Assembly: GCA_951406725.2 (NCBI GenBank)
Contig: OX597834.1
Location: forward strand, 5,022,001 to 5,086,000
Reading direction: 5' to 3'
Source: Octopus vulgaris
Lineage: Eukaryota
DNA: 64,000 nt
Part shown: positions 6,474 through 64,000 of the stretch, piece after piece
Numbering within the stretch: position 1 is the stretch's first letter
How the letters are laid out: the number at the start of each line of letters is the position of its first letter
Notes under the pieces: generated by a model
Databases searched by the model: none
What the model saw: only the letters and a program-made list of their open reading frames with translations
Told to the model about the DNA's origin: nothing
Made by a program: the position numbers and the translations under genes

Positions 6474-6760
6474 TACCAATTAAGGACTGAACACGAAAAG
6501 TGGACAGTCAACATGCTAGATATAGACGTCAAATCGTCATTCTCTTTGGTTTTGTGATGAGTTTTATTTGAGAACATAATCTTTGTGGAGAATGACGATT
6601 TGACGTCTATATCTAGCATGTTGACTGTCCACTTTTCGTGTTCAATCCTTAATTGGTATATATAAATATTTTAATCTTCGGATTCTTTTTAATATGCTAG
6701 ACCACTGGTTTTAATTGACTAATATCAATTTCTACCCTTAATTAATTTTATATATATACA
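6474..6760 (+). mobile_element. Fold-back element 1 (71-bp arms, 43-nt spacer, one-sided tail)
   Basis: 6474-6544 is the reverse complement of 6588-6658 with one mismatch. The tail 6660-6760 recurs inverted at about 46995-47095. (TA)n flanks. Confidence 0.85.
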
Positions 6761-6876
6761 GTGAAAACAAAGAAAAAATTCTTTAACACATCTTTAATTA
6801 TAAGTTACACGTGTTTCCGTACCTTCTCCATTTGCCACGCCAGAAAAATTATGTAATATAATTAGAGTGGCAATTC

Positions 6877-7140
6877 CTCAAACTTGCATGAAGCTCATGC
6901 TATTACATTGTGCTTCTATCAGACCTTGTTGTAATGAAAGTATCGGGGGGGAAGTAAAAAGGACAAAAACTAAAAGTGCGTATGTGGGACTGGGCTGCGG
7001 AGAATAAATTATGTGATGCGGGGTGTCAAGAGCATAGATACGTGTGAAGATAGGGGAGAAAGGGAAAGAGGGAGAGGAAAATGAAATGGAAAATGGTGAT
7101 AGGGAAGAATCGGAACAAGGAAAAGGAAACGAAGGAATAG
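6877..7140 (-). repeat. Interspersed repeat, homologous to 9541-9790
   Basis: Colinear similarity (CTCA.ACTTGCAT.AAG.TCATGCTATTA ... GAAAGTATCGGG ... GGAAGAATCGGAACAAGGA.AAGGAAACG). Strand assignment is tentative. Confidence 0.7.
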
Positions 7141-7169
7141 GGGAAGAAGGAAAAAGGAGTAAAAAAGAG

Positions 7170-7410
7170 GAAGGAGGAGAAGAAAGAGAAGAAGAAGAAA
7201 GAGGCGGAGGAGAAGAAGGAGGCAGAGGAGAAGAAGAAGAAGAAGAAGAAGAAGAAGAAGAAGAAGAAGAAGAAGAAGAAGAAGAAGAAGAAGAAGAAAA
7301 AGAATAGGAAGAAGAAAAAGAATAGAAAGAAGAAAAAGAAAAAGAAGAAGAAAAAGAAGAAGAAGAAGAAGAAGAAGAGAAAAGAAGAAGAAGAAGAACA
7401 ACAACAACAA
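7170..7410. repeat. (GAA)n purine-rich microsatellite
   Basis: Direct reading. Confidence 0.95.
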
Positions 7411-8150
7411 GCAGAAAGATGGGCATGTGTCAACATCTTGTGGACTCTGTAAGTCTACTCTGTCATTGTTTGTTCGTTCCAAGCTCTAACTCTCCATGAA
7501 TTTCAAATTTTTAAAATTTATGGATGCTGCTGTCTTATGAGATTTCCCTATATAGTCGTTAAAAGCACGCAATAAGGAGCAATAAACAGTCCGACAACTG
7601 ATGAGGAGGTATCTTCTTTTGTAATACCCTGTACATATAGAGTATGTTTTTGGCATTTTGACCTGTACTTATCTCTCGTGTGTTTACGTATTTTTCACTC
7701 GTTGGTGATGTCCTGTACACTATGTTTATTATTTTTTTTATTATATAATGAAATGAATAATAACAGAGGATGGATAAATGTCAGTTCATTACAGCTGTTT
7801 GTTGCGGATTTTGATAGGTGAATGAGTACATTACATCATTGCATGAAACTGTATTTATCAGATGATACGTATAATTTCAAAATCATATAAGAACACTCCA
7901 TAAACGCTGTGAAAAACACGCCTAGCGGCGTATTTTTTCTCTTCGTGTGCAACCTGAATATTTAACAGGATATTAATTCGACTAAATGTCGTGATCACAG
8001 GTTAACTCAACCCTACTTGGTGCATATCATTCATGCAATAAGGATTCTCTCAAGAATCCTTATTATTATTATCATTATTATAATTATTATTATTATTATT
8101 ATTATTATTATTATTATTATTATTATTATTATTATTATTATTATTATTAT

Positions 8151-8892
8151 TCTATGTTTGACTTTTGTTTTACATTTGCACAAGCTGGCACCAAGTCTCA
8201 TCCAGAGACCTCAAGAGACAACAAGTTGGAAGTTCATGTTGGTGTTATACCTAGGGTGCCATATATTTGGTTTTGTACTTAGTGTTGTACTAGTGAATGC
8301 CTAAAAAACCATAAGAAAATCATGTTTGTTTTAAAACTTGAGATTACATAGAAAGTATTTTGCGTAGGATATGAGCAGTTCCCATGAGCACTATCTTTTG
8401 GATTTCTGCCATTTTGGGGTTTCCTGGTATCTGAGTTAGGTAGCGATCAGCCCCTTTTGCTATCATTCCCATGGCACGTATGACAACAGGTATTGTTTTA
8501 GTCTTCAGGTTCCACATTTTGCTGATTTCTATTTCAAGATCTTTATATTTGCTCAGTTTTTGGTAGGTCTTGACAGATACGTTTATATCGATTGGGGCAG
8601 TCGTATCAATGAGGAGGCATGTTTTTTGTCTGAAGTCTTTTACTATGATGTCTGGCCTATTCGCGTCTATCTTTCTGTCAGTTTAAATGGTGAAGTTCCA
8701 GAGGAGTGAGATGTGGTAATTTTCAAGCACTGGAGGTGGTTTGTGTTCCCACCAGTTTTTATCATGGGGCAAGTCCAGGCTTTTGCAAATTACGCAGTGA
8801 ATATATTGTGCAGCTCTCTCATGCCTGTTGAGATACTTTGTAGGCGCAAGAAGACTGCACTTGGAGAAATGATCAATGATTTCATTTTGTTG
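8151..8892 (-). mobile_element. 5'-truncated R4/Dong-like LINE copy (RLE domain + 3' UTR)
   Basis: Colinear with 26379-27160. Bounded by (TTA)n on both sides. Confidence 0.9.
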
Positions 8893-60679: not shown

Positions 60680-61090
60680 AGGAGTGGCTGTGTGATAAGT
60701 AGCTTGTTTACCAACCACATGGCTCCGGGTTCAGTCCCACTGCGTGGCACCTTGGGCAAGTGTCTTCTACTATAGCCTAGGGCCGACCAAAGCCTTGTGA
60801 ATGGATTTGGTAGACGGAAACTGAAAAGAAGCCCGTCGTATATATGTATATATATATGTGTGTGTATGTGTGTGTTTGTGTGTCTGTGTTTGTCCCCCCA
60901 ACATTGCTTGACAACCGATGCTGGTGTGTTTACGCCCCCGTCACTTGGCGATTCGGCAAAAGAGACCGATAGAATAAGTACTGGGCTTACAAAGAATAAG
61001 TCCCGGGGTCGATTTGCTCGACTAAAGGCGGTGCTCCAGCATGGCGGCAGTCAAATGACTGAAACAAGTAAAAGAGTAAAGAGTAAAGAG
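60680..61090 (+). mobile_element. SINE group C, full length
   Basis: Homologous to 46014-46420. Confidence 0.9.
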
Positions 61091-61476
61091 TATATATATA
61101 TATGTATATATATATATAAAACGTAGTTAGAGGATAAAATCATTAAAATTAATTAATTTTATCAATGGCCAGCATATTAAAATCTTTTAGGTAAAATACA
61201 TTTATTGAGATATATAACTGTATAGGGTATAATTATACTCAATGATACAAGAGTGACAGGATGTATTCGACGCGTTCTTTCAGCATATAGGCATAATAGC
61301 TTTTACGCCCTTAAGTATAATTGTACCCTGAGCAGTTATCTCTTTCTTTCTCTCTCTCTCTCACTCTCTCTACATATGTATATATATATATATATATATA
61401 TATATATATATATATATATATACACACACACATATATATATATATATAGGAACAAAGCAACAAGAATGGATTAAAA

Positions 61477-61564
61477 TCTCGGTACGATCGTTTCGTACGA
61501 GGACATCTTCAATAAGCTACAAAAAATGCAGTGAATACAGATGGCTCGTACTCGTCAGCCGAAA
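61477..61564 (-). ncRNA. Type I hammerhead ribozyme motif (left arm)
   Basis: Reverse complement of 61864-61951. Confidence 0.85.
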
Positions 61565-61863
61565 AAACATCAGAGAATTCCCAAACATCAAAAGGGGTAG
61601 ATACAAAAGAGGTTGTAAGATTAACTGCATTGAAGAAAGTTCGATTCATGGAGATCCGATGAAAGGTTTTAAACTTACAGAATTTGTGCATGTCTACATA
61701 TAGCTCATATTGAATTTCTAATCAAGTTGTGTAGACATGCACAAATTCTGTAAGTTTAAAACCTTTCATCGGATCTCCATGAATCGAACTTTCTTCAATG
61801 CAGTTAATCTTACAACCTCTTTTGTATCTACCCCTTTTGATGTTTGGGAATTCTCTGATGTTT

Positions 61864-61951
61864 TTTCGGCTGACGAGTACGAGCCATCTGTATTCACTGC
61901 ATTTTTTGTAGCTTATTAAAGATGTCCTCGTACGAAACGATCGTACCGAGA
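61864..61951 (+). ncRNA. Type I hammerhead ribozyme motif with long stem II and palindromic stem III (right arm)
   Basis: TTTCGG-CTGACGA-GTACGAG [43 nt incl. CATCT/AGATG] CTCGTAC-GAAA-CGATCG-TA-CCGAGA. Confidence 0.88.
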
Positions 61952-64000
61952 TTTTAATCCATTCTTGTTGCTTTTTTCCTATTTGTAATCACCCCACTTG
62001 TCGTATGGTTAACACCATATAGATTTCCGGTGCATCCTAGTTAAGGACCATATTCATGTGAATTCTTTAGAATTCACTTGGATCTCAATTACTTAACCGT
62101 ATATATATATATATATATATATATATATATATATATATATATATATATATATATATATATATATATATATGTAGCAATAAAAATTTATATAAAAAGAACG
62201 TGAAATACACGAAGGGACGAACACGGAAAACAAACAAGTCATTTGAAGCCTTCAATCTTCAGTCAGAAACCGAATCATCATGGCAAATTTCGGTTGTTTA
62301 ATTCTGAGATTTGCTCCGAATCGGCCAACCCCAAGGAAAAAACTAAGCTGTGAGCATTAGATTTCTTGGTAGAAGGAAAGAATGTAAACGCATATATATA
62401 TATATATATATATATATATATATATACACACACATAAAACTGTATGTGTGTGTATATATAACTGCTGCTGGCTTGGGGTAATTCTACAAGCAGGGTTTCC
62501 GATGCAATGACAGGCAGCTAAGTTTGGATGCGACAGATATCGGCGAAACAAGAATTTTGGCTAACGTCTGAATAGTCTCTTGCAGAGGAAGATGGTGTGG
62601 GAAAGAAGTGCAGTGATCCTGTCCATTTGCTGAAAGAATATTGAGAGTTAATGGATTTAATCCCAGCCCTAGATAGGATTACTATTTTAGCATTGGCTGT
62701 TTATTAGCAGACAAAAATTGGGCATCGGAAAAAAGTCCTTGAGCATTTTTGCCAATGTGGTTTTCATGCTTTCGAGATGAATAATATAAAATACCAGAAT
62801 ACATTGTTATCGATATAATCTGCTTAACTCCTCTCTTAAATATTGTTGTTTTTTGTCTAAAGTTAGACACATTTATTATTACTGTTACAGTGTTAGAAGA
62901 GTGTAATGGTGAGAGAATCGGACACATTTCATTGACGTAGTGAAGCCCTGAATGTCTCGCGAAGTCACATCTCATCCTTTTGAGATCGATAAAATCAAGT
63001 GTGAGGGTAGAACAAGAGAAAACTATTACCGAATGTTCCCTCTTAAAATGTCTGGAGTATTTCCTGTGTAAGAAATCAATGTTGGTGTTATTATTACACT
63101 TTAAATTTCTAATTAAATTTAAGTTTCCCAAAAAAAAAAAAAAAATTACTGAAGTGAGATTTCTGCAATTTCTGATTCTATCTGAGCAATTACTAGAAAA
63201 TACTGATTTAAAGGACAAAAAAAAAAAAAAAACGTACACAAAACAAAGAATGAATGTTGGAAAATCTGTGTCCAGTAGTTTACAAGAATTTCAATAATTC
63301 TCAACATGAAACTGACTGCGACATTATGACCTACGCACACAGTTGCTCTTCGGATTTCTTTATGCTCACTCTTTCTTTTGTTACTTCTTTCGTTTTATTC
63401 TTGCTTCAATTAATTTTGGGAAATGGAAATAATTGGAAATTAAAATGATTATAATTGGTGTTATTTTTTATCCAAGATTTTCAGCTTTAGTTTTCTTGTA
63501 TTATTTTTTCTTTCCTCTATTACCTTTCTATTAATTCCATTTTCCCCAGGTTTCATTGAAAAATCCATATATTTTTAAACGAATCATGTCCACCTTCACA
63601 ATTTCATTTTAGTCAATGCTTATTACAGGTCCATTCTCCATTGTTTAGCATTCTGTAGGTTCCAGTTCCAGTCATTAGCTTTGTATATATTTCCTGCTTT
63701 AAATTCAACCCCATCATATGAGAACTACTTTACATTTTACCGTTTTCTAATTAAACAGAATATTCATGAATGAGAAAGATATGTGAAACTCCTATATTAA
63801 TGATTGCAAACACAAAGACAACTAAGTTGATACCGAATTATTACTTAGTAATGATATAAAATATGAATATTTCGTATTTGGATCTGGTTTGCAAAATTCT
63901 TTATATGAGTTCGTGTGTTGAAGCATATTCTATTGTGTCTGGGGAGAGCCATTTTCTTTTTGAATCTTATTATTATGTAACACACTAAACTATTGAAAAG

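Follow-up and report, generated by a model that had tools for sequence, protein, structure and literature searches.

This report concerns a stretch of 64,000 nucleotides (nt) from the genome of Octopus vulgaris (GenBank assembly GCA_951406725.2, contig OX597834.1, positions 5,022,001 to 5,086,000), referred to below as the window, and five long hairpins, E1 to E5, that lie within it. Each hairpin is an inverted duplication, in which two arms of opposite orientation flank a short spacer. The host genome comprises 2.8 Gb in 227 contigs. A first-pass annotation, made from the sequence alone, had read the five as a single system of insertions without open reading frames (ORFs), produced by the machinery of Penelope-like elements (PLEs).

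Five Inverted Duplications

Self-BLAST, repeat finding, and pairwise alignment recover all five duplications where they were first described, with spacers of 43, 42, 29, 1, and 31 nt (E1 to E5). No similarity is found among the five families. Pairwise alignment gives arm identities of 98% for E1, about 86% for E2, 96% for E3, 99% for E4, and 98-99% for E5. In four of them one arm continues into a one-sided tail (91 nt in E1, 95 nt in E3, 68 nt in E4, and 117 nt in E5), as had been claimed; E2 is without one. The TA flanks and the 12-bp target-site duplication (TSD), which belongs to E3, are likewise present. In every family the outer ends of copies gather at two positions, called here the long end, which includes the tail, and the short end, which does not. 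The parts of the five hairpins are as follows.

6474..6544, minus strand: E1 inverted arm; stops at the short 3' end of the E1 family, against (TA)n
6545..6749, plus strand: E1 forward arm; 43-nt spacer, arm 6588-6658, tail 6659-6749
16062..16217, minus strand: E2 left arm; from a family of 340-bp hammerhead units, extends to the long end
16254..16399, plus strand: E2 right arm; close to the long end as well, an exception to the one-tail rule described below
47489..47500, no strand: E3 left TSD, 12 bp
47501..47726, minus strand: E3 tail-bearing arm; tail 47501-47595, from a 353-bp ORF-less hammerhead unit
47727..47885, plus strand: E3 tail-less arm, including the 29-nt spacer; finishes at an alternative short end (+131)
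47886..47897, no strand: E3 right TSD, 12 bp
56502..56838, minus strand: E4 tail-bearing arm; pseudo-long terminal repeat (pLTR)/3' end of a PLE of Hydra type by its motifs, tail 56502-56569, type I hammerhead 56636-56588 (minus)
56840..57108, plus strand: E4 tail-less arm; type I hammerhead 57042-57090 (plus)
61446..61729, minus strand: E5 tail-less arm, including the 31-nt spacer; type I hammerhead 61558-61483 (minus)
61730..62099, plus strand: E5 tail-bearing arm; pLTR/3' end of a second PLE of Hydra type by its motifs, type I hammerhead 61870-61945 (plus), tail 61983-62099

Hammerhead ribozyme motifs had been reported in both arms of two hairpins, and these are E4 and E5. For the E5 pair, shuffled windows give 0-1 matches each (5 shuffles). 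The E4 pair was missed by the scanner and found by eye and with a regular expression. Paired hammerheads lie on opposite strands simply because the arms are inverted. An Rfam scan of the window shows no hammerhead among the matches listed (150 of 164), and the only hairpin-shaped models are those of microRNAs, below threshold.

The window copies of E1, E2, and E3 have no complete hammerhead, being truncated below or inside it. The forward arm of E1 is the 3' portion of an ORF-less hammerhead unit of 512 bp and is truncated below the hammerhead. The spacer of E3 contains the 3' half of its family's hammerhead. E2 is an old insertion, its arms being only about 86% alike. The centre of E4 falls on a short palindrome native to that element, and (TA)35 directly follows the tail of E5.

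Protein-Coding Parents of E4 and E5

Relatives were sought in the same genome, with 40 candidates scored and 30 fetched per search; L numbers (L043, L223, etc.) are labels of genomic loci. First-look candidates number 971 for E1, 460 for E2, 2,667 for E3, 1,279 for E4, and 1,889 for E5, which are candidate totals and not copy numbers.

Copies of E5 have a common 3' end, followed by (TA)n. Walking upstream from E5 leads to an endonuclease (EN) domain of GIY-YIG type and a reverse transcriptase (RT), which in L227 and L228 form intact ORFs of 1,090 and 1,091 amino acids (aa). The E5 sequence also lies immediately 5' of these ORFs, tail included, at 97.6-98.6% identity, and E5 is therefore a pLTR. 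Upstream of E4 there are about 2.3 kb of microsatellite-like untranslated region (UTR) and then a different RT and GIY-YIG ORF (L223, L229), which E4 precedes as a pLTR in L224. RT and EN of the E4 family are seen in broken copies (L223, L224, L225, and L229). The tandem layout expected of a pLTR, in which a truncated copy of the 3' end stands upstream of the ORF, is thus found in L227 and L228 for E5 and in L224 for E4.

The proposed link to PLE machinery and pLTRs is borne out by these loci. The description of all five hairpins as ORF-less, non-autonomous insertions does not fit E4 and E5, which are truncated ends of protein-coding PLEs. Both of their families show 5' truncation, an adjoining inverted copy, and an optional tail, the tails exceeding the usual 30-40 nt. 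At the level of sequence, the hammerhead core motif occurs in 28 of 30 E4 loci and in all 30 E5 loci.

The two parents share the motifs RWR, DKT, CxCx5C, a single Cys between GIY and YIG, CxxC, and CxH, and have no CCHH. Diagnostics of the Hydra clade of EN-containing (EN+) PLEs are DKT, CxCx5C, a GIY-YIG with a single Cys, absence of CCHH, CxxC, CxH, and (TA)n targeting (PMC8557442; here and below, statements on cited papers apply to the parts of their text that were available). Placed by these motifs, the parents of E4 and E5 are PLEs of Hydra-clade character. Pfam and PDB searches with pieces of the parent RT and EN gave no family and no structure match. ESM Atlas neighbours of the sister protein carry HTH_animal, GIY-YIG, and RVT_1.

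Two other views of E4, as an ORF-less family and as an extension of an adjoining E5-sister PLE (L156/L159), were dropped once its own RT and GIY-YIG ORF was found.

The first-pass annotation had also noted relics of a PLE RT and GIY-YIG domain in the window. They are present, but since they are only 30-37% identical to the E4-sister and E5 parent proteins, they are not the parents of E4 and E5.

14051..14242, minus strand: degenerate PLE GIY-YIG relic; parent of none of E1 to E5
19477..19907, minus strand: relic of a PLE RT, degenerate; identity with the RT of the E5 family about 30%

The 2.3-kb 3' UTR of the E4 parent consists largely of degenerate TA/TG repeats (L223-L229), so this element spreads microsatellite-like DNA resembling its own target. 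The E5 parent ORF has long Asn-rich inserts between RT and EN (L227, L228), as in the PLEs of Adineta vaga. PLE copies of different families are stacked in each other's TA flanks, forming nested clusters (L156, L159, L043, and L298).

ORF-less Hammerhead Units

E1, E2, and E3 are parts of closed head-to-tail monomers of 512, 340, and 353 bp, none of which has an ORF. Read from its sequence, each monomer contains a single hammerhead of type I, whose stem III is palindromic. By these features, the three families are non-LTR-retrozyme-like. Head-to-tail junctions are the rule, with two hammerhead regions in tandem in just 2 of 30 full-monomer loci of E1 and 1 of 30 of E3. The TSD of E3 and TSD-like repeats at L099 and L100 fit the retrozyme TSD of more than 4 bp. 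A coding parent, sought through the tail and the full monomers, was not found in 180 loci, nor was a parent pLTR, in a search limited by the scoring of the top 40 candidates.

Truncation points are not concentrated at the cleavage site of the hammerhead: 5' ends within -3 to +8 number 4 of 36 in E1, none of 27 in E2, and 2 of 38 in E3. A cluster of E3 truncations at -10 to +10 (11 of 38) coincides with the palindromic stem III.

The retrozyme-like units bear the same PLE-type scars as E4 and E5, namely head-to-head inversion and two fixed ends. They are likely to borrow the same PLE enzyme, which would integrate them in trans.

A lone tail, 87% like that of E1, lies between TA runs at 46990-47091 (minus strand). 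The same tail stands behind a different arm in L336.

Two Fixed Ends and One Tail

The copy survey covers 192 distinct insertions from 240 loci, most of which were top matches to tail-containing queries. It includes 99 head-to-head pairs, 92 single-orientation insertions (86 with a classifiable end), and 1 other. Among the pairs, 88 combine a long end with a short end, 4 have two long ends, 1 has two short ends, and 6 are otherwise arranged; this is the one-tail rule. Family tails measure about 80-92 nt in E1, 36 in E2, 52 in E3, 69 in E4, and 110-118 in E5, or 36-118 nt overall against the usual 30-40. The window copy of E3 uses a minor end, with a tail of 95 nt versus 52 for its family.

The same pattern is seen in an unbiased set of 30 E1 loci (L260-L289), picked with neither end in the query and counted by hand. 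Here 13 of 15 classifiable pairs are long and short, with the tail on either side, while single-orientation copies are divided into 6 short and 4 long (P = 0.004 versus the pair pattern). Of 64 distinct E1 insertions, 45 are inverted. Since short ends also occur in 13 single-orientation insertions, the short end is independent of inversion.

Junctions between the arms are specific to each copy. They show overlaps of 0-14 nt, short palindromes, or filler, and no two of the 53 junctions compared are alike; at three E3 loci whose centres are similar, the junctions and flanks still differ. The predicted combination of family-constant tail ends and copy-specific centres is thus what the survey found.

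Proposed Mechanism and Alternatives

PLE architecture and 5' truncation mark all five hairpins as insertions, two from coding PLEs and three from ORF-less units, and a PLE enzyme that primes reverse transcription twice is the likely maker of all of them. The GIY-YIG domain would cut both strands of an AT-rich target. Each nick would then serve the RT as a primer, with synthesis starting at the outer (tail) site in one case and at the inner site in the other, on RNA from the same source. Both cDNAs would stop early, and their ends would be joined via short homologies or filler. The hairpin would then be a by-product and not a mobile unit. In vitro, both strands of the target are cut and extended by a PLE protein, whose two starting points within the RNA mark the limits of the tail (PMC11167929); the available text supplements of that paper do not mention "inverted", "tail", or "tandem". 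The stronger claim that PLEs integrate by an obligate-like twin priming, with one of two fixed internal RNA sites for each target strand, and that ORF-less hammerhead units integrate by exactly this route, has about an even chance of being right.

Evidence for two primings comes from the nesting of the arms, which was compared in 50 pairs hand-picked from BLAST segments. In 15 pairs the tail-less arm extends beyond the tail arm on the 5' side by more than 10 nt, and in 6 of these by more than 30 nt; 21 pairs have the longer arm on the tail side, and in 14 the two are within 10 nt. E3 and E5 of the window are among the non-nested pairs. At L261, the tail arm spans +23 to +257 and the adjoining partial copy starts at +200. 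Fold-back of a tail-primed cDNA needs the tail-less arm to be nested in the other. Because the arms are often non-nested, and because the PLE protein has two start sites in vitro (PMC11167929), two primings are favoured, one per strand and one per site. The arms of E4 and E5 diverge from each other about half as much as from other copies (0.015 versus 0.031 and 0.009 versus 0.016), which argues that they come from the same source.

Several points weigh against twin priming or limit its reach. Most surveyed loci were top matches to queries that contained the tail, and the hand-picking of pairs left out all of E2 and the tandem-containing L067, L074, L077, L101, and L117. E2 of the window and three other insertions have two long ends. 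The 5' truncation points of the two arms lie within 25 nt in 26 of 50 pairs, closer than chance (permutation P = 0.0003 for E1, 0.017 for E3, 0.003 for E4, and 0.14 for E5), and perfect palindromes form several of the centres, as expected from fold-back or self-priming. Such correlated truncation points fit both cDNAs stopping at one RNA end, but they fit self-priming with central deletion too. The same-source signal is weak in other families, with a divergence between arms below the median in 10 of 20 E1 and 5 of 9 E3 pairs. Any PLE protein match occurs in 8 of 180 E1 to E3 loci, none in the position of a parent, and the placement in the Hydra clade comes from motifs, not a tree.

The near-equal truncation points and palindromic centres, such as that of E4, are also what would be expected if the PLE origin is kept and one cDNA folds back and primes itself, or is primed on an antisense template, with the second arm ended by EN at the boundary of the tail and the spacers made by later central deletions. 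Central deletion of palindromes is established, and the common source of the arms also speaks for this scheme. Self-priming has been proposed for PLEs (PMC3846280), as has EN-mediated resolution (PMC8557442). Plain fold-back, one of the two routes named in the first-pass annotation, cannot yield the 15 pairs whose tail-less arm extends beyond the other by more than 10 nt on the 5' side, unless a central deletion followed. Deletions of 30-560 nt would be required in 6 of 50 pairs, and loci of the L261 type are not simply explained. In the unbiased E1 set, the full monomer is only on the short-ended side in 6 of 13 long and short pairs, and the short ends of single-orientation insertions arise with no inversion needed. 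Self-priming from one cDNA is on balance unlikely. That the palindrome is itself the selected unit of a dedicated, non-autonomous "hairpin retrozyme" system is very improbable: three of the five families are ORF-less with a hammerhead, and E1 is mostly inverted, but junctions all differ even where E3 centres are similar, E4 and E5 have coding parents, E1 to E3 in the window are without a complete hammerhead, and 86 of 192 insertions are single-orientation. The earlier notion of one hairpin system fails on these grounds.

Rearrangement during sequencing or assembly could also create such structures, near-perfect palindromes being a known class of fold-back artefact. Here the arms differ by 1-14%, the ends are family-constant, and a TSD borders E3. 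The left junction of E3 is crossed, to 29-39 nt into the element, by contigs from four runs, of which two carry other organism labels; two cross the right junction by 26-28 nt, under the 31-nt bridging bar. No single contig record spans the whole E3 palindrome (the best match may itself come from the assembly source), and no empty E3 site was seen in contigs from other runs. Chimeras are hardly credible as an explanation, and the chance that the hairpins are miniature inverted-repeat transposable elements (MITEs) or foldback DNA transposons is practically nil. The inverted arms, the TA flanks, and a mariner transposase relic in the window recall MITEs, but the centres are variable, copies are 5'-truncated, tails are one-sided, direct partial tandems occur, and parents code for RT. 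Terminal inverted repeats at both ends and a uniform copy structure were not found in the copy survey. The first-pass annotation had rightly judged that the hairpins are not classical MITEs.

Comparison with Known Systems

Inverted 5'-truncated copies and a one-sided tail of 30-40 bp are standard features of PLEs (PMC8557442, PMC3846280, PMC8969392). Like the Hydra clade (Craig et al. 2021, PMC8557442), the E4 and E5 parents have RT followed by GIY-YIG in one ORF, a pLTR hammerhead, (TA)n targeting, DKT, the CxCx5C linker, CxxC, CxH, and no CCHH, and they leave an adjacent inverted 5'-truncated copy with a tail at one end. Unlike that clade, their units measure about 4.4-4.7 kb, compared with generally less than 3 kb (a tendency, not a strict limit), they have RWR in place of RWK, and their tails are 68 and 113-118 nt versus 30-40. 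The greater length corresponds to the Asn-rich inserts in the E5 ORF and to the microsatellite-like 3' UTR of E4.

A similar arrangement can be found in the Penelope elements of Adineta vaga (Arkhipova et al. 2013, PMC3846280), which have a head-to-head inverted pLTR, an optional tail on one arm, TSDs of 8-10 bp, palindromes at the inverted junction, and N-rich ORF inserts. Their copy number is low, and their inversion was explained by self-priming, whereas the non-nested arms favour two primings here. In Schistosoma, dual minimal hammerheads lie on opposite strands, 100-700 bp apart, and were ascribed to truncated PLEs (Cervera and de la Pena 2014, PMC4209133), the same pattern as in E4 and E5; the available text of that study contains no analysis of junctions or ends. 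Octopus Penelope families have been listed with no mention of hammerheads or palindromes in the available text (PMC13282606).

E1 to E3 resemble non-LTR retrozymes (Cervera and de la Pena 2020, PMC7229834; Li et al. 2026, 10.64898/2026.07.22.740005) in their short ORF-less head-to-tail monomers, single type I hammerhead, and TSD of more than 4 bp when present. Unlike retrozymes, they mostly consist of one full monomer and a partial one, with a PLE-type inverted copy and two fixed ends. Within the available text, the word "inverted" is absent from PMC7229834 and occurs in 10.64898/2026.07.22.740005 only in a reference title. Dependence of non-LTR retrozymes on PLEs has already been proposed in this literature.

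Twin priming itself is known from L1, where the second priming starts from the other target strand and the products are joined through microhomology. In L1 the second priming takes place upstream, and the product is an inversion in which nothing is duplicated. In the present families both starts lie close to the 3' end, yielding an inverted duplication with a tail.

The architecture of the hairpins is thus already published (PMC3846280, PMC8557442, PMC4209133), and a PLE specialist would not be surprised by it. New are the one-tail rule, the non-nested arms, the long tails, and the PLE scars on retrozyme-like units, a modest but testable addition. The searched literature, open-access papers, contains no quantified long and short pairing, no PLE twin priming, and no PLE inversion scars on retrozymes. 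How inverted pLTRs and tails arise is treated as an unsettled matter in PMC8557442, and the case for PLE mobilisation of animal retrozymes is built on their co-occurrence and on similar pLTRs (10.64898/2026.07.22.740005). If the stronger claim made above is true, animal non-LTR retrozymes bear a PLE-specific scar that proves who moves them. Since the families are young and of high copy number, with intact ORFs, a sharp pair of ends, and junctions in the thousands, both questions can be counted in silico and tested in vitro.

Density and RNA Data

Density was estimated from sixty spaced 10-kb stretches (600 kb), six of them flanking the window, with a rule that recovers all 5 window palindromes. 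The samples contain 18 palindromes, or 1 per 33 kb, which extrapolates to about 84,000 in the genome. The density of 1 per 13 kb first proposed does not extend to the genome: the excess of 5 in 64 kb over 18 in 600 kb (P about 0.05) makes it a local high. In 12 of the 18, a TA run lies at one end and another no more than 160 nt from the opposite end, compared with 3.5% of random intervals; two of these 12 resemble inversions of short interspersed elements (SINEs) by eye. If the stronger claim on twin priming is right, tens of thousands of hairpins of 150-850 bp across the genome would be a possible large source of double-stranded RNA.

No RNA dataset is listed as containing the sequences, and contigs of the E families occur in three runs that are only guessed to be RNA. 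Joints at which such contigs go back appear because the reference is a dimer; the same joints are present in DNA and speak neither for nor against expression.

Further families of palindrome plus tail occur in the spaced samples (L319, L320, L328, L346, L295, and L330), one of them three times in the 600 kb.

Other Features of the Window

Two smaller palindromes, absent from the first-pass annotation, lie at 23406-23573 (82-nt arms, 88%) and 43867-44002 (66-nt arms, mostly trinucleotide repeat). Further type I hammerheads are found at 1887-1920 and 46799-46851 (both plus strand), with a decayed relative at 36290-36699. They belong to another pair of repeat families, related to each other and ending at TA runs, and are likely to be more PLE-type ends.

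A long interspersed element (LINE) frame of 1,155 aa with RVT_1 and zf-RVT occupies 26608-30075 (minus strand), with truncated relatives at 8080-8892 and 25288-26308. The mariner-type transposase relic lies at 24240-24995 (minus strand), and a second decayed one near 20000-20450. At 48101-48779, a 172-bp unit is repeated 3.9 times at 96% identity and is related to a dispersed SINE-like repeat of the window.

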